NCBI GenBank assembly: GCA_011816565.1
Contig: GCA_011816565.1_3614.1
DNA length: 64,000 nt
Source of the DNA: a phage
Reading direction: 5' to 3' (one strand)
Shown: positions 17,265-64,000 of the stretch, piece after piece
Layout: every line of letters starts with the position of its first letter
Numbering within the stretch: position 1 is the stretch's first letter
Notes under the pieces: model-generated
Told to the model about the DNA's origin: nothing
The model's input: the letters and a program-made list of their open reading frames with translations, nothing else
Databases searched by the model: none
Translations under genes and position numbers: made by a program

Positions 17265-17483
17265 TCACAGATCTCCAACAACTTCCCAAATACCCCAGTG
17301 AGCATCTATATCCTTGATAAAGTATCTTTCTCCACGGTTTGTCCACACACCTATCCCAACTTTACCATCTATCCCATTGTATACATCTGCCTCATACTCT
17401 TTGCCCGGTGTAAAGTGTACACCCATCATAAGGGCTATTATTCCATTAGGATTTTTAAATTTAACAAATTTTACTTTGCTCAT
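17265..17483 (-). CDS. hypothetical protein
   Basis: 72-aa ORF in minus-strand array, start abuts the next gene. Confidence 0.4.
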   Translation of the reverse strand: MSKVKFVKFKNPNGIIALMMGVHFTPGKEYEADVYNGIDGKVGIGVWTNRGERYFIKDIDAHWGIWEVVGDL

Positions 17484-17484
17484 A

Positions 17485-17814
17485 TTACTTAATCCTTGCA
17501 GTTACAGTAGCGCTATACCCCATGTAGTTATGAGACATAAAGAATGTAAGCCCTTTAAGTTCAGGATTCTTTCTAAGAAATCGTTTCAATTTTCGAATGC
17601 AATTAACACCATGATCATAGTTTGAGAAATTAAATTTAATACCCTGCTCCATCATAGTGCACACTTCTTCATGGGTATGCCATTGTCTATCGTGGTCACA
17701 AAACCAGTAACCAATACCTTCTTTTTCTTGGATATGCAATCCCCAAAATACTTTATGCATTGGATATTTTGGTTTTCTACCATGATAATGTAGTTTAATA
17801 TTCACATGTGCCAT
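17485..17814 (-). CDS. hypothetical protein
   Basis: 109-aa ORF; TTGACA-N17-TATTCT promoter-like sequence on the minus strand upstream. Confidence 0.45.
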   Translation of the reverse strand: MAHVNIKLHYHGRKPKYPMHKVFWGLHIQEKEGIGYWFCDHDRQWHTHEEVCTMMEQGIKFNFSNYDHGVNCIRKLKRFLRKNPELKGLTFFMSHNYMGYSATVTARIK

Positions 17815-17981
17815 TTTTTGTTACTCCGTTCTGTATCTGTGATAATGAGAATAGCAAACTGGGGTGTGTGCTGTCAACAACATTTTTAAGCGTTTTGGGG
17901 AAGTTTTTGAAAGGTGGGTGTAATCACAAGAGAGGGTGGAGTTATTGAAGGCACAGGCCTCTTTTGAGGCCTTAAAATCGA

Positions 17982-18362
17982 TTATGACACTTTGACGTAG
18001 CGCTCTGACAGAGCTGGAAAGCCAAAAGCAGTACCTATACTACCGTATGCTACCCACCATTGAAGTTCATCGTGACACCATTTTCCGATCAGGAAGGTGC
18101 TGGGGTAGCGGGTCAGTATTTTGGCATAAGCTTTAGGGTCTGCATCTTCTGGGATAATGATACTTGGAACATCTTTGTTATGGCCACAGCAGCAGTTTAG
18201 AGTTTTCAATCCTGCCGCCCATAGACTCATGATAGGCTTAGCCATGCACTTATCAAGGCACACACGTTTTTTGCCGTCACGGAGCTTTTTAGGCACATCA
18301 ACGATAACATTTTGATGCTTGGCACCTTTCACTTTCCAATTATAGGATTTACACTTGCACAT
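17982..18362 (-). CDS. hypothetical Cys-rich protein
   Basis: 126-aa ORF with clustered cysteines (CLDKC...CCCGHNK). Confidence 0.45.
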   Translation of the reverse strand: MCKCKSYNWKVKGAKHQNVIVDVPKKLRDGKKRVCLDKCMAKPIMSLWAAGLKTLNCCCGHNKDVPSIIIPEDADPKAYAKILTRYPSTFLIGKWCHDELQWWVAYGSIGTAFGFPALSERYVKVS

Positions 18363-45815: not shown

Positions 45816-47086
45816 TGAGCGTTATTCAACAATTTGCTAACCCGATGAATCCGCGTGAAACTGTTTTACTGGCTCACGGCATGATTAAACGTGTCAGCAT
45901 CAAACCTATCAAAGGTGCTGATCCTACAACAGGTATTAAAACCACTGTGTGGCAAGGTAAGAAAATTGAGTCCAGCCACACCATCTCTTTACTGATTTCT
46001 GAACTGGATTCCTCTGATAACCTGCTTCAAGGTGGTGAAGAAGTCTGGATCAGTATGGGTGATAAACTGCTTAAACCGGGTCATCAAGACTCTGTCTCTG
46101 TTAAAATTGATGACAAGTGGGAAACCGTAACGCCAGGATGGATCGTAAATATCCCTTTGAAGGCAAACGAGCATAACGGTAAGACCTATTACAAAGGCTC
46201 ACTGGCTAAGATGGTTAAGCTGGGTGCAGGAGAGGCTCCAGCAGCGACTCAGCAGCAAAAACAGCAACAAGGTGCACAATCACAAGGCCAGAAGCAGAAA
46301 CCTCAGCAGAATGCCAATCAGGACGTTTTACGCATCTATGGTGATGTGACTCAGATTGTTGGCAACGTGGTTACTGTTAATGACCACAAGATTGGCGAAG
46401 GTGCTATGGTTGTCACTGATGAGCAGCTTAAAGACCTGGTGGTAGGTGGTCGTGTTGCAGCCATTGTTGACAAAGACACCGGAAACATTATCAGTGGTTT
46501 CAAAGCCTACCCACCTAAGGCAGAGAACGGCACTCAAGGCTCTGGTGGCAAGCGTAAATCCTCTTACGACCCTATTGGTGTGGAGACGGGGCATAGCATC
46601 AATGCGTTGCAGATCATCCTGGATCGCGGGTTTAAGGTGGACGACCCACTAGGCGTGGCTAAAACACTGCACGTAGTCACCATTGAGCTTAAGAAAGAGT
46701 ATGCTCAAGCCACCAACCGAACTGAAGATGAGGTAGGTGCCAGTGTCGGTAATGCGGTGTTGAACGCTTGTCGCCGTATTGACAAGAAAACGAAAGTTGA
46801 TGATTTTGCAGTGGCAATTACTGCAGAAGCAAAAGATGTCTTGACTAATCTGGCTGAGCCGTTGTACGATTGGATCAAGAACGGTGCTGAGTCCACTGAC
46901 CATCAAGAACCTCAAGCTGCCAAACAGGAAGCCGCTCCACAGCAAAACACTGTAGACGCTCCTCCTGTAAATGATGCGGAAGATGACCCAATGGATCAGA
47001 ATCCAGCACAGTATGACTTCTGTGATGACATACCTTTCGCTCCGGTGGGTTTGCAATATGGCAAAAGTAGAATCCACGCATTGTAA
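45815..47086 (+). CDS. hypothetical protein with SSB-like acidic C-terminal DDIPF motif
   Basis: Two domains joined by a Gln-rich linker; C-terminal acidic tail ...[19 protein letters not shown] followed by 16 extra residues that overlap the start of the downstream nuclease gene. Confidence 0.45.
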
Positions 47087-47681
47087 GAGGTGCATCAAGT
47101 GCGGAGAGGTGAAAAACCTCTCCGAGTTCTACAAACACCCAAAGATGTCTGACGGTCATCTTAATAAGTGCAAAGAGTGTTGTAAGAAGGCCAGTAGGGA
47201 GGCTGACCAGTTTTCCCACGACTCTTCAGAAAAAGGTGTAATACGCGTGTTGTACAAGGCTCAAAAGTGCAACAGCAAGCAAAGAGGTCACCCTCCTCCG
47301 ACTTACACCAAAAAAGAGTTTAAGGAGTGGCTATACCTGAACGGTTACAAAGAGTTGTATGACCAGTGGGTAGCCAGCGGATACGACAAAAGGAAAAAGC
47401 CCTCTTGTGACAGGATAGATGATTTCAAAGGGTACTCTTTTGATAATATCCGTTTAACGACCTGGGGAGAAAATAAAGACAAGCAGACGGAGGATATTCT
47501 GTTGCATAGAAGCACCAGCGGTAGACGGTGTAAAAATGTAAGGAGGTTGGACATGAATGGCAACGTTCTTAAAGAATGGGTATCCCACAATTCTTGTAGA
47601 AGAGAAACCGGAATATGTGTTGATTACTACATTCATGAAAAAATTCCAGCTCCCGATGGATACCTCTATGAATACTTTTAG
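47058..47681 (+). CDS. zinc-ribbon / HNH-like endonuclease (possible homing endonuclease)
   Basis: Start at in-frame ATG (track ORF from 46971). N-terminal Cys pairs (CKRCIKCGE...KCKECC); HNH_3-like core with Arg in place of His ([24 protein letters not shown]). Confidence 0.4.
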
Positions 47682-50895: not shown

Positions 50896-51224
50896 CAGAG
50901 ATCATCGTTTCAACTGCAGGGTATGTATTCCTGACAATCATTGCGCTGGCTATTCTGGTGGCGGTGTATGGATTTGTTATCCTGCCTATTCTTGAGACAT
51001 TTAGTTTGTGTCGGTGTTGGAGAAAAGCTTACGGACCACAACCGTGGAAAGACTGGTTCCATTTGGTGCGTATAGCGTTCTCTTATGCCTATGACCACTC
51101 TAGCAGTGCATGCGTAACCGGGTACCATGCCTACAACTGGAACTGGGAAGGGCTGGGGAGATGGACTGTTACAAAAACTATACCCTTACGGTTGTACAAA
51201 GGAAAGAACACACTGGGAGCCTGA
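50892..51224 (+). CDS. predicted membrane protein
   Basis: 110 aa with N-terminal hydrophobic segments (YVFLTIIALAILVAVYGFVILPIL). Confidence 0.45.
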   Translation: MTEIIVSTAGYVFLTIIALAILVAVYGFVILPILETFSLCRCWRKAYGPQPWKDWFHLVRIAFSYAYDHSSSACVTGYHAYNWNWEGLGRWTVTKTIPLRLYKGKNTLGA

Positions 51225-51253
51225 TATTTTAAGTTATCAGGTTGCCAGAGATC

Positions 51254-51712
51254 AGGAGGATTTCTAAAATGGATTTCCTCCTTTTGATATTTTACCTGCC
51301 AGGATATTTTAAAATCCTTAGAAAATCAGAAAATGGATCGAAAACTAAAATGGATTTTTCAGAGTAGGCGCGACAAGCTGAATCACTCATCCTACCGTTT
51401 GCACCATATTCCAGACCACCATTATAGATTTCCCGCACATGCTTACATCTCGCTACTAGAACTTCCTCCACTTACCCTTGACCTTTTATAGCAATAATCC
51501 AACCACTATCTTGAAGTTGCGGTGCAGCTTTCCAGGTACTCGATCTGTTTTTCGTTTCAAAGATTGAATTTTCTGAAAATTTTTCTCGATAAATTTCTCA
51601 GTACTCGATCTGTTTTTCGTTTTCTGAATCGGATTTTCTGGAAATCGCTCCGGCTCTTGGCCTAAAATTTTTGGGGACGAAATCGATTTTTCGTTTTCAG
51701 AAATGGATTTTT
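51254..51712. repeat. AT-rich iteron-like direct repeat region
   Basis: Three copies of (GTAC)TCGAT(CTG)TTTTTCGTTTTC at about 51536, 51601 and 51681, each with TTTTCTG(A/G)AAAT; at least four copies of (C/A)AAAATGGAT; hairpin AGGAGGA...TCCTCCT at 51254-51282. Confidence 0.55.
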
Positions 51713-51830
51713 AAAATTTCTATACGGGAATATTTTATGGGATACTGTTTTATAGGAAATTGTTACGGAGGGTAATTAGCGTGCTAATTAAATTTATTAA
51801 ATGCGAGGAGTTCTCATTTAGAATTTTGAA

Positions 51831-52034
51831 TGATAATCATTCTCGTTTGCAGAATAACGGGCAGGCCCGGTGATTGTCTCCCGGCCCCTACTGCCCCGGC
51901 TTGTTATTATAGTAACACACAGGACAAAGAAAGCAAGAAGTTTTTGCATAAATTTTTAGACGATAATGATAATCGTTCTCATTTCATGCAGCGCCCATCC
52001 CCGGTGGTTGTCTCCCCCGTCACCGGTGCCTGCC
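51831..52034. repeat. GC-rich structured repeat (two tandem units)
   Basis: Units at about 51831-51890 and 51967-52020 share TGATAATC(A/G)TTCTC...CCGGTG(A/G)TTGTCTCCC; 5' GGCAGGCCCGGTG and 3' CACCGGTGCCTGCC are complementary. A shorter inverted copy lies at 60983-61025. Confidence 0.5.
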
Positions 52035-52058
52035 GTCCTTTCGATAGGTATATTTTGC

Positions 52059-52198
52059 CACCTGGCGGGGCCGCTGTCAACACTTTTCAAAAAAAAATTC
52101 TAACCTGATGCGCTGACCGCTGCAACCTGGCGGGGCCAGCCTGGCAGGGCCTAACTGACCAGGTAGGAGAGAATGAAGGCTTGCAAACCTGGTGGGCC
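52059..52198. repeat. direct repeats of ACCTGGCGGGGCC
   Basis: CACCTGGCGGGGCC (52059), CAACCTGGCGGGGCC (52123), AACCTGGTGGGCC (52186); a fourth variant lies inside the next small ORF. Confidence 0.45.
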
Positions 52199-52239
52199 TA
52201 TGCTATAGGATAGGTAACAATTGAAGAGGAGGTACAAAA

Positions 52240-52416
52240 ATGGAAGGTAATATGATCCCCCTGGAAAATGTAGCTATTAATGACGCTGAGGCTATCGCCC
52301 TGGTTGAAAAGGCTATGGCGGGAGCGTTGGAACATAAAGAAGAGTACGAAAAAATGATGGTTAACCTGGCAGGGGCGGCGGCTGGAGAATTCCGCCCAAA
52401 AAATAATTTTAACTAA
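52240..52416 (+). CDS. hypothetical small protein (58 aa; not in ORF track)
   Basis: ATG 7 nt after GAAGAGGAGG; stop overlaps the next track ORF start. Confidence 0.35.
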   Translation: MEGNMIPLENVAINDAEAIALVEKAMAGALEHKEEYEKMMVNLAGAAAGEFRPKNNFN

Positions 52417-60982: not shown

Positions 60983-61025
60983 GGCAGGCACCTGGCGACG
61001 GGGGGAGACAATCACCGGGCCTGCC
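60983..61025. repeat. GC-rich element, inverted copy
   Basis: GGCAGGCACCTGGCGACGGGGGGAGACAATCACCGGGCCTGCC; its reverse complement joins the 5' part of the 51860 unit and the 3' part of the 52001 unit. Confidence 0.5.
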
Positions 61026-61050
61026 TGTCATATAAGAACTATAAAAACCG

Positions 61051-62295: not shown

Positions 62296-62313
62296 TTTTT
62301 AACTGAATTATCA

Positions 62314-62338
62314 AGGGGCCTTAGCCCCTTTCTTTTTG
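62314..62338 (+). terminator. rho-independent terminator
   Basis: AGGGGC-CTTA-GCCCCT hairpin followed by TTCTTTTTG. Confidence 0.6.
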
Positions 62339-62947
62339 TCTGCTCTTCCCCCTACCATAAACGGCCCTACCTGACAAGTGGAATAATTGACGAGCCATCA
62401 ATCCCGCACACTGTACAAATATACATGTAAAATAGTTATTGCATAACCTTTCATTGTGTGGTAGCAGGGCTATTTTTACCCGTTTTCCCTTCCAAAATTG
62501 CACGTAATGCCGCTATTGCACAAATTTTAACCTGATGCAGATCTTCAATATCTTGTCAACAAGTAAAAATTCTTATAAGTCATACACTTACACAAACTAA
62601 AAAGCGTGTTCTACGCGAAAAATCGAGTATAACTATAGCCGCCAGATCTCAGAATTCACGTACGCACGCCATTCTATAGCCTGCAAAGTATTTATTCCAA
62701 CCACAGAATAACGGAATAGCCAATACCTGCATAAAATAATTATTCGTGTAAACTGCATAACATAAATCAGCTCAGGTGTCAACATTTTTCGTAAACAGTC
62801 CGAAATTATCACGATGAGTTATCATAAACAGAGAAATCTTTAGTCGTCTAATGTTTACTGTACATTACTATACTGACTGGAATCATTAGATGACTAAGAG
62901 AAAGATAAGAAATAATTAATAATGTGATTATTTTACCTGTAACAATA

Positions 62948-63172
62948 AGGCAACTATGCAAACGAATGGCATGGCGCGACGGAGTCGCGACATAATATAA
63001 AAGCAGTAACCATCACCCCCGTGATAGTTTGTCTGCAAACTATTAATCAGATCATAGTTGCCTTGTATTTAGTTAATCATGACATAACAAGCAAGGCAAC
63101 TATAGATCTGCTAATAGTTGCCCTGCTTTTATATTATGTCATAGGAACGCCCGAAGGGGTGACCTAGTCACC
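62948..63172. repeat. palindrome/inverted-repeat cluster in AT-rich non-coding region
   Basis: ATAGTTTG-TCTG-CAAACTAT palindrome (63024-63043); AAGGCAACTAT/ATAGTTGCC in both orientations (62948, 63054, 63093, 63112); inverted pair CGCGACATAATATAAAAGCAG (62986) / CTGCTTTTATATTATGTC (63123); GGTGACCTAGTCACC palindrome (63158); ATGCAAACGAATGGCATGGC direct repeat (62956, 63230). Confidence 0.55.
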
Positions 63173-64000
63173 TGGCATAGCCAGCGAAAGATTATTAACT
63201 TGTCGATTGTTATCTTGTTAATTGTTTTCATGCAAACGAATGGCATGGCTTATCATCTATGCGTGAACAGTGAGGCATGCAATAGTAACAATTGTTATTG
63301 TATCCAGTGTGTTGAGTATGCCCAGTGTGTCACTATTATGTCATATTATGTCACAGTATGTCAGACAAGTTTTTCTCCTCTTTGTCAAGTGCTGCATGAA
63401 AAATTTACAAGCTTGTATGGTAGCATTTTTGCGGCCCTGTTTACATTCAGTAGTGTATGTATAATCCTTGTTGTGTGGGCGTTTAGACGTCTAGACGGTT
63501 GGAAGTCCACAGGTCAATATCTAATCTATCGGCTGCTAACTATATCCCACACAAATAGTAAGAAATATGATTGTTATATGCGTAAACTGTAACTCATGTT
63601 ATCAATCCCTGTATGGATCGCCAGTGGTGCGCATAATGGGTATTATGTTAAATTGCCAGTAATGATAACTATTCTCACAATGATAGGTATTCTCATTCAC
63701 TCCCACAAGATAGGTTGCAAATGTTGTGCCACTGTGTGAACGGCCTCACCTATTAATTTGCCTCACTGCCTCGATATTTGAGAATTGTTATAAGAATGAG
63801 AAGTATTCCCATTTCGTCCGCCTGGCAGCACTCCAGTCGCTACCGGCTCCTGACAGGGAGGCACTCCTGTTGGTCAGGTCAAAATCGGGGTAGAACTGGG
63901 CCTGTTCAGATATTTCTGGCTGACGCTTCAGGTCTGTGTGGGAAAAGACAACCTCCCCGACGGGGCAGGGGGGTGTCTGCTGGAAAATTGCAGGTCAATT

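Follow-up and report, generated by a model that had tools for sequence, protein, structure and literature searches.

The 64,000-nucleotide stretch of DNA analyzed here (NCBI GenBank assembly GCA_011816565.1, contig GCA_011816565.1_3614.1; hereafter the window) comes from an rV5-like E. coli phage of the genus Vequintavirus. A gap of ~1 kb between two groups of its genes (51225-52240) contains an array of three direct repeat units, which we conclude is very probably an essential, cis-acting non-coding DNA element and not a gene. More tentatively, we propose that the array is the replication origin of rV5-like phages, or the key recognition part of that origin; that replication initiates here is something we infer, and we hold it at somewhat less than an even chance.

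The locus is situated in a long block of plus strand genes, of which rIIA/B, helicase, primase-helicase and DNA polymerase come first, followed by a run of small unknown genes, the last of which stops at 51224. The next gene, whose ATG is at 52240, is the first in an array of small genes that extends to about 62,300, past which a convergent non-coding gap of about 2-2.5 kb starts. The annotated relative Bas55 (JeffSchatz, 135.6 kb) served as our map. An earlier reading of the DNA (the sequence-only reading) had placed the locus between the replication/accessory module and the small-gene array. Between 51225 and 52240 there are short open reading frames (ORFs) only, which annotators call differently or skip. 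From 24,000 to 62,000, which is one co-oriented block, there is a step in composition exactly at the 51-52 kb gap, GC skew being about +0.13 before it and about +0.07 after it and AT skew about +0.07 and about +0.14, respectively, indicating that the gap divides two compositionally distinct modules.

Insertion tolerance and coding potential

Transposon insertion data exist for a close relative, phage Bas54 (MaxBurger), which is included in the HIDEN-SEQ preprint (10.1101/2025.11.20.689424; Extended Data Tables 2 and 8). Bas54 is 97% identical to the window, and we placed its annotation on the window by alignment; the TA-site counts that we computed (21, 3, 11, 15 and 14) equal those in the table of the preprint, showing that the mapping is exact. 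Annotated gene bas54_0100 (51519-51665) corresponds to repeat units 1 and 2 and has three TA sites, one of which was hit (mean count 5), with the call NA. For bas54_0101 (51671-51775), which covers unit 3 and the AT-rich linker that follows it, none of 11 TA sites was hit and the call is Essential, and for bas54_0102 (51830-52103), which spans two units with palindromes that resemble the binding site (Fur box) of Fur, the iron regulator of the host (hereafter Fur units), five of 15 sites were hit (mean 12.7) and the call is Strong fitness defect. Eleven of the twelve genes upstream are non-essential and one is scored 'Reduced fitness'; downstream, bas54_0103 is 'Intermediate' and the next six genes are non-essential, with mean counts for flanking genes, where shown, of about 150-790 (10.1101/2025.11.20.689424). 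Given that the downstream genes tolerate insertions, polarity cannot account for the effect. The authors of the preprint regard bas54_0100-0102 as hypothetical genes and report a separate insertion-free intergenic region of ~2 kb (10.1101/2025.11.20.689424), which corresponds to the window from ~62,300 onward.

One explanation for these data is that the region encodes the annotated small proteins (bas54_0100/0101/0102, rV5 ORF198/199, PVP-SE1 gp202/203), whose frames are open over 34-92 codons and annotated in many records, and one of which the transposon study scores as an essential gene. However, the start codon of the bas54_0100-like ORF varies in relatives (GTG, GCG, GTA or ATA), two natural relatives, ECP2303 and EPFV3, carry a stop codon within the bas54_0101-like ORF, and the bas54_0102-like ORF begins inside a Fur box, lacks a ribosome-binding site and is frameshifted at its 3' end. 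The strand and coordinates of the small ORFs differ between annotators and, in a comparison by eye with other genera, conservation extends to the DNA but not to the reading frames, with no ORF of similar length. On the basis of start codons, internal stops and the frameshift, we rejected all ORFs over the region as genes, and a protein product is hardly a credible explanation. The sequence-only reading had called the region ORF-free, which is right in the sense that the short ORFs present, although annotated in relatives, are none of them conserved.

Organization of the repeat array

A repeat search placed three in-register direct repeats at 51529, 51594 and 51668, spaced by 65 and 74 bp, with copies 2 and 3 being 79% and 62% identical to copy 1, respectively. 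Units 1 and 2 have in common an exact 22-nt core, GTACTCGATCTGTTTTTCGTTT (51536 and 51601); across 300 Markov shuffles of the region the longest exact repeat was 15 nt. The version in unit 3, TCGATTTTTCGTTTTC (51683-51698), is without GTAC and without CTG. These are the three copies, roughly 65 bp apart and with GTAC and CTG in brackets, that the sequence-only reading had described, and the TTTTCTG(A/G)AAAT palindrome-like box that it assigned to each is found as ATTTTCTGAAAAT at 51568, ATTTTCTGGAAAT at 51633 and TTTTCAGAAAT at 51694. The more general pattern TTTTC[AT]G[AG]AAA has three matches in the window on both strands, all of them in the array. Unit 1 (51536-51600, plus strand) is composed of the GTACTCGATC box, the T-rich sequence TTTTTCG, the 7-1-7 palindrome AATTTTCTGAAAATT and then TCGATAAATT (51586-51595), which we take to be the high-affinity binding consensus of H-NS. 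Unit 2 (51601-51674, plus strand) has the GTACTCGATC box, TTTTTCGTTTTC, the imperfect palindrome GATTTTCTGGAAATC and the end AAAATTTTTGGGG, and the degenerate unit 3 (51675-51720, plus strand) has the near-palindrome ACGAAATCGATTTTTCGT followed by TTTTCAGAAATGGATTTTTAAAA.

A second motif is concentrated at the locus. Four of the five occurrences of AAATGGAT on both strands of the window are inside 51225-51720 (51266, 51330, 51347 and 51700), where 0.04 would be expected. The sequence-only reading had listed four or more copies of such a motif preceded by C or A; the number stands, but the preceding base is T, G and T, or the motif is GAAATGGAT. Both hairpins that it reported are also present, one being of terminator type with a T-run (51250-51286) and the other an AT-rich hairpin of 16 pairs (51667-51704). 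The A/T tracts of the array are phased at ~10.8-11 bp (98.7th percentile) and A6T5-6 junctions are present within the units of other genera, features that fit intrinsically bent DNA. The unit motifs are absent elsewhere in the 135.6-kb Bas55 genome, and this confinement to one locus argues against a dispersed promoter or operator motif.

Conservation of the array

The 1.4 kb around the array matches 122 phage records, with a top identity of 97.4%. In an alignment of six Vequintaviruses, mean pairwise identity is 94.6% for the array, 97% for the Fur units, 90% for the AT-rich linker and 91% for the cluster of boxes to the left of the array, compared with 71% for the spacer between that cluster and the array and 76% for the end of the upstream coding sequence. 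That these non-coding blocks are better kept than the coding end and the spacer indicates that they are under purifying selection; the start of the downstream gene, at ~90% identity, is about equal to them.

Distant blastn matches reach other genera only through ~51784-51937, the first Fur unit. Nevertheless, a three-unit array is found at the same position in the gene order in PVP-SE1 and GAP31 (Seunavirus), Mydo (Mydovirus), Hena1 (Henunavirus) and CB7 (Certrevirus), with unit spacings of 74-78 bp and then 63-69 bp and a cross-genus consensus of GGKWCTCGATC, TTTTTC, a local palindrome and ATTTTTTC-N7-9-GAAAAAATTTTT. GATC is within the conserved box in most genera, with the exception of Hena1. 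In these genera the array is preceded by GATATTT boxes, numbering three wherever a count was made, and by clustered AAATGG(A/T)TTT boxes, and likewise by a variable spacer of ~170 bp in Seunavirus (where read), and is followed by one to three AATGA(G/T)AATCATTCTCATT palindromes over a TTGAAT-18-CAGAAT promoter-like element. Phages of Klebsiella, Raoultella and Proteus, as well as Avunavirus phages, show 74-78% identity over the array, and immediately 5' of it the DNA cannot be aligned. The sequence-only reading had named absence or lack of conservation of the repeats in relatives as evidence that would count against it; we looked for this, and instead found the array kept in five genera.

Units at the same position in different genera are somewhat more alike (0.84) than units within one genome (0.77), and the closest matches of unit 1 are unit 1 of PVP-SE1 (0.82), GAP31 (0.78) and Mydo (0.78). 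This indicates that the triplication is old and that each unit has been kept. In E. coli genomes the sequence of the array locus has no match. Its sole plasmid match in PLSDB is to CP057073.1 (137,565 bp), at 17418-18023 and 95% identity, the length of which fits an rV5-like genome; the plasmid label of this record is probably mistaken, the DNA being that of a phage in a carrier state or present as contamination.

Fur-box-like palindromes and predicted promoters beyond the array

Two near-consensus Fur boxes that the sequence-only reading overlooked, at 51826 and 51962, are located beyond the AT-rich linker. The first is the palindrome TTGAATGATAATCATTCTC, 15/19 to consensus, which is combined with a predicted sigma-70 promoter, TTGAAT-18 nt-CAGAAT (51826-51855, plus strand); the second, GATAATGATAATCGTTCTC (51962-51980, plus strand), is 17/19 to the consensus GATAATGATAATCATTATC. 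A degenerate Fur-like box (51798-51816) lies ~30 bp 5' of the first. Two tandem units of ~136 bp start from 51829 and 51965, with the palindrome first in each and then a conserved G+C-rich segment. No match of 17/19 or 15/19 arose in 10 Markov simulations of the window. The first box (51826-51844) occupies the -35 and spacer of TTGAAT-18-CAGAAT, an arrangement that is conserved in the Vequintavirinae genera examined, and promoter and box are invariant in the six Vequintaviruses. The -35 is poor in Phapecoctavirus anhysbys, and a generic promoter scan omitted the 51826 promoter. An ORF of 31 codons (51781-51873, plus strand) with the ribosome-binding-like sequence GGAGGG overlaps the first box and its promoter; its start is GTG here and ATG in four relatives, and it is kept within Vequintavirus, with the frame lost in other genera.

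Across the whole Bas55 genome, phage palindromes of at least 15/19 are found only in the array region and the 2.5-kb gap, apart from one match in a coding region. Copies in the gap of the window are at 63661-63677, 63679-63697 and 63795-63813, and in a 50-kb segment of PVP-SE1 the palindrome is found only at the array locus (126915) and in the phage's own 2.2-kb convergent gap (118311 and 118704). A scan of IMG/VR with the palindrome returned mostly unrelated Fur boxes, and only three of the screened loci were relevant. The boxes are kept in phages of E. coli, Salmonella, Klebsiella, Cronobacter, Proteus, Erwinia and Pectobacterium that belong to two subfamilies, whereas the sequence of the array varies by phage lineage. 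For example, Phapecoctavirus, a member of another subfamily, has a different AT-rich array in the equivalent place and has kept three or four palindromes. Because the boxes are shared across hosts and subfamilies and the array is lineage-specific, we infer from this distribution that the ligand of the boxes would be a host factor, most simply Fur, and the ligand of the array a phage protein. The TTCTCA half-site and the spacing of ~29 bp leave room for a phage-encoded ligand at the boxes. The literature that we searched contains no description of Fur boxes in lytic phages. A wider proposal would be that virulent enterobacterial phages of Vequintavirinae and Stephanstirmvirinae recruit Fur both beside a lineage-specific array and unwinding element and at the second, insertion-free gap, so as to couple the start of replication, or the early programme licensing that start, to the iron status of the host, with the array being the missing rV5-like origin built from an unusual composite unit of ~70 bp. 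As a whole, such a Fur-gated essential control site is a long shot.

Each of the two predicted Fur-box promoters is followed by a copy of a conserved element, GGCAGGCCCGGTGATTGTCTCC (51861-51882 and ~51997-52016, both plus strand). A third copy (~61003-61031, minus strand) is intergenic on the opposite strand and has GATGTCAA just before it, a sequence that also precedes the boxes in Seunavirus. These copies are possibly small transcription units, and the combination of a promoter-like element with a segment present three times in the window (51861, ~51997 and ~61003-61031 minus) would be compatible with an essential product that is a non-coding RNA, either a repeat RNA from the array or small RNAs of the Fur-box units that carry GGCAGGCCCGGTGATTGTCTCC. 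Partly redundant copies could account for the five of 15 sites that tolerate insertions in the Fur units, and the related phage phiTE uses a repeat RNA, pseudo-ToxI (PMC3475682). However, no covariance model of Rfam 15 reached its gathering score anywhere in the window, with only a chance snoRNA at E = 0.5 in 49-54 kb, and on neither strand does the array fold better than shuffles (z = -0.7 and -1.4). Across genera the Fur-unit transcript has no consensus structure or covariation, and GGCAGGCCCGGTGATTGTCTCC is conserved as sequence and not as a shared hairpin. Furthermore, there is no conserved promoter 5' of the array; of the one promoter predicted, at 51639-51668, relatives have not kept the -10. 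Taken together, an RNA product appears very unlikely. Pseudo-ToxI of phiTE was itself considered and set aside, as it differs in locus and unit length (PMC3475682) and would be unrelated in sequence; the array locus corresponds to phiTE_078-080.

A candidate replication origin

For rV5 no origin is known, and an analysis of skew did not reveal one; the replisome is T7-like, with a primase-helicase and a PolA-type polymerase (PMC3606486). The literature that we searched had nothing relevant on the origin or the transcriptomes of rV5 or PVP-SE1. The segment next to the array is a linker with 70% A+T and low duplex stability (51700-51825), and is a candidate DNA-unwinding element: based on predicted melting, 51702-51801 is the second least stable 100-bp interval in the 64 kb (99.9th percentile), with the least stable one located in the gap from ~62,300 onward.

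In the mechanism that we propose, the three units of 65-75 bp, each of which combines a GGKWCTCGATC box with a T-rich tract, a small palindrome and a junction of A-tract and T-tract, would be bound by a protein of the phage, giving a nucleoprotein complex on bent DNA. This complex would adjoin the part of the region that is predicted to melt most easily (51700-51825). Beyond it, one or two promoters for host RNA polymerase, overlapped by the Fur-box-like palindromes, would fire away from the AT-rich segment. Such firing would favor opening of the DNA, through the negative supercoiling left in the wake of the polymerase, and could tie the site to the iron status of the host. Transcription away from a site is known to aid unwinding in the case of gidA at oriC. 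We favor an origin on account of the unique and ancient array of units on DNA that is probably bent, the meltable DNA beside it, the predicted outward promoters, a border between gene classes as in T7, and the fact that the origin of the phage is unknown.

Several observations weigh against an origin at this site. The transposon data are at the level of genes and come from one preprint and a 97%-identical relative. The proteins encoded next to the array have no Pfam, PHROG-function or PDB match, leaving no initiator gene beside it, and the units, at 63-78 bp, are not iterons of 17-22 bp on a pitch of ~22 bp. Between 51200 and 52260 there is no exact DnaA box and no IHF core, and the one single-mismatch DnaA site is at background density. 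The sequence-only reading had proposed iteron-like repeats beside an AT-rich stretch as a candidate origin or regulatory hub; a functional, putatively protein-binding array in this setting is supported, being kept in five genera and insertion-intolerant in Bas54, but an origin here is still only a candidate role, in view of the unit length and the lack of an adjacent initiator and of DnaA and IHF sites, and a regulatory hub is equally a candidate. Moreover, GC skew falls and AT skew rises across the locus, the opposite of the classical origin signature. The AT-rich segment is located 5' of the predicted promoters (51826-51855 and ~51956) and not 3' as in the transcript-primed origins of T7 and T4, and the DNA 3' of both promoters is G+C-rich. 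The Seunavirus record PQ002170.1 (1500-1733) has two units only, at a contig end. Finally, the insertion-free gap from ~62,300 onward, which has the least stable DNA, is at least as good a candidate for the origin. As to the skew itself, in rV5-like phages it follows transcription (PMC3606486).

In PQ002170.1 there is a precise loss of 67 bp between the GAAAAAATTTTT tracts of units 2 and 3, and the record, which has an assembly overlap of 80 bp ('attL/attR'), ends inside the Fur box. A further entry, PP681140.1 (1-200), begins inside unit 1. The two units of PQ002170.1 may be true copy number variation or an assembly artefact.

The second gap (~62,300-64,000) runs past the end of the window. 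Its least stable DNA is around 62,850-62,900, and it contains a perfect 18-nt inverted repeat (62989-63006 and 63123-63140) and an exact 20-nt direct repeat (62956 and 63230). The Bas55 copy of the gap has GATATTT boxes and two CCGGCGGGGCAGGGG repeats. The only k-mers that the array locus and the gap have in common are GGCGGGGC and AATGAGAA.

Neighboring or essential proteins of unknown function were considered as the initiator and set aside, having no Pfam, PHROG-function or PDB match. A winged-helix protein is a candidate ligand of the array, but only a lead. In PVP-SE1 it is gp213 (131,798-132,076, minus strand), which is annotated as 'replication initiation protein', matches Pfam HTH_36 at E = 1e-10 and is weakly similar to DnaD_N. 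Its relationship (pairwise E = 0.002) is likewise weak to Bas55_0214 (131,508-131,858 in Bas55) and bas54_0212, which are annotated as a transcriptional regulator in Bas54 and Bas55; insertion counts in bas54_0212 are approximately ten-fold below those of its neighbors. The gene is 4.5 kb from the array in PVP-SE1 and ~51 kb from it in Bas55.

Transcriptional control and packaging as possible alternatives

The main rival to an origin is that the region is a transcriptional control region that opens the early gene block, in which the bent units and the box cluster to their left would act as an activating or architectural array, or as the operators of a phage regulator, for the Fur-box promoters and for the early promoter at 52181, and which would be essential through the timing or level of early transcripts. 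We regard this as rather unlikely but as a serious alternative. The array is bounded directly by the terminator that closes the upstream operon (51250-51286) on one side and by the first predicted small-gene promoters on the other, and in every genus the TTGAAT-18-CAGAAT promoter-like element and palindromes follow within ~55-150 bp. The two or three palindromes, ~29-31 bp apart, resemble an operator series, and insertions in the promoter-bearing part likewise cause a strong fitness defect. It is established that phased A/T tracts can activate a promoter when they are located 5' of it, and those of the array are phased and 5' of predicted promoters. On the other hand, the genes directly downstream are dispensable, so that lost read-through transcription cannot explain lethality, and the strongest intolerance to insertion is in the array and the AT-rich linker rather than in the promoter units. 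In addition, the unit motifs are found nowhere else in the genome (Bas55), and the early genes of rV5 have promoters of their own.

Another cis-acting function to be weighed is recognition by the small terminase subunit, with the array serving as the site (pac) for headful packaging. The genomes of relatives are circularly permuted with terminal redundancy and hence require a pac site (PMC3475682), and such a site would be essential in cis. The array would provide repeated putative binding sites on DNA that is predicted to be bent, and a few GenBank records start or end within the locus. Repeated sites on bent DNA are typical of terminase recognition, for example at lambda cosB and SPP1 pac. 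Nevertheless, pac sites are usually in or beside terminase genes, whereas ~80 kb separates the large terminase gene from this locus; the ends of the records are inconsistent, and assembly overlap or chosen start points suffice to explain them; and the Fur boxes and promoters have no link to packaging. A role in packaging is therefore highly unlikely.

Elements flanking the array

The left side of the gap contains the intrinsic terminator of the upstream replication/accessory operon (51250-51286, plus strand), in which an AGGAGGA/TCCTCCT stem is followed by TTTT and the loop contains the first AAAATGGATTT. In our alignment the stem is maintained in relatives through G-U pairs and compensatory changes. 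Three GATATTT(T) boxes were found around it by repeat search (51223, 51286 and 51303; 51223-51309, plus strand), and three such boxes are also present 5' of the array in Mydo, Hena1, CB7, GAP31 and PVP-SE1. They are accompanied by three (A)AAATGGAT(T/C) boxes (AAAATGGAT) at 51266, 51330 and 51347 (51266-51356, plus strand), which are set among A-tracts 7-10 bp apart; a fourth is in unit 3 at 51700, and the counterpart in other genera is AAATGGTTTT. The spacer that joins this cluster to the array (51363-51535) evolves fast yet has a roughly constant length of ~173 bp. Its indels are not multiples of three, and the ORFs of both its strands are broken in relatives.

On the right side, the Fur units are followed by three TGC(C/A)ACCTGGCGGGGCC repeats (CCTGGCGGGGCC) at 52056, 52121 and 52135 (52056-52151, plus strand), with a related copy at 52186 within a promoter. 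The direct repeats that the sequence-only reading placed near 52059-52198 are present, ACCTGGCGGGGCC being exact at 52060 and 52125 with variants at 52139 and 52187, and the block is 93% identical among relatives. The promoter is a predicted sigma-70 promoter with an extended -10, TTGCAA-17 nt-TGcTATAGG (52181-52209, plus strand), that serves the first small gene and is partly deleted in Mangalyan and EPFV3. The TGC(C/A)ACCTGGCGGGGCC repeats resemble partial copies of its -35 and spacer.

Upstream in the same block, an endonuclease VII/HNH-like ORF (46971-47681, plus strand; PHROG 1035, E = 2e-41) is contained in an insertion of ~640 bp relative to Bas55. It overlaps the end of a 423-amino acid protein whose Bas54 ortholog is scored essential, and is probably a homing endonuclease.

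Significance

The rV5-like phages rank among the most frequently isolated coliphages of broad host range and are used in therapy and biocontrol, and their origin and early control are unknown (PMC3606486). At this locus, three 'hypothetical genes', one of them essential and one with a strong fitness defect, become one conserved non-coding element with a defined anatomy, which provides a precise target for origin mapping, protein pull-downs and phage engineering. The site must stay undisrupted, and it may be needed in minimal or rebooted genomes. The conserved near-consensus Fur boxes in insertion-intolerant non-coding regions suggest, in addition, that lytic phages may sense the iron status of the host.

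Comparison with known systems

The F-plasmid centromere sopC consists of tandem 43-bp repeats, each with an inverted repeat. Like sopC, the array is a set of tandem repeats of medium length at a single locus, each with an internal palindrome; unlike sopC, it has only three units and belongs to a lytic, circularly permuted phage with no known need for partition and no ParB/SopB-like gene identified. The Fur units invite comparison with Fur-repressed enterobacterial promoters, such as the aerobactin iucA promoter. Similarities include several adjacent 19-bp palindromes, 17/19 and 15/19 to GATAATGATAATCATTATC, over the -35 and spacer of a sigma-70-like promoter. The differences are that the phages are strictly lytic, that the regions are insertion-intolerant, that the right half is TTCTCA and not TTATCA, and that the palindromes are spaced by ~29 bp and do not overlap.

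Iteron origins, such as lambda ori, P1 oriR and RK2 oriV, have iterons of 17-22 bp with a spacing of ~22 bp and differ in this respect from the three composite modules of 63-78 bp described here, which in addition lack DnaA and IHF sites and have no initiator gene beside or across them. The array is similar to these origins in its several putative binding repeats of the same orientation at one locus, an adjoining AT-rich segment that is predicted to melt easily, predicted bending, GATC in the repeats (in most genera) and a probable essential role in cis. In Bacillus phage SPP1 the origin-binding protein G38P binds at two distant sites, oriL and oriR. Two separate AT-rich sites are present here as well, namely the array locus and the second gap, sharing Fur-like palindromes, GATATTT and GGCGGGGC, and the candidate binder here is a small winged-helix protein; unlike in SPP1, the sharing between sites is limited to a few short motifs, and the replisome is T7-like and not SPP1-like.

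The primary origin of T7 (1.1A/1.1B) and oriF and oriG of T4 provide the last comparison. In contrast to these origins, the AT-rich segment here is 5' of the predicted promoters, the promoters would be of the host sigma-70 type, with the second one weak, and a repeat array is present. In common with them, tandem predicted promoters are found beside an AT-rich stretch at a border between gene classes and, like T7, the phage has a T7-type primase-helicase and polymerase.

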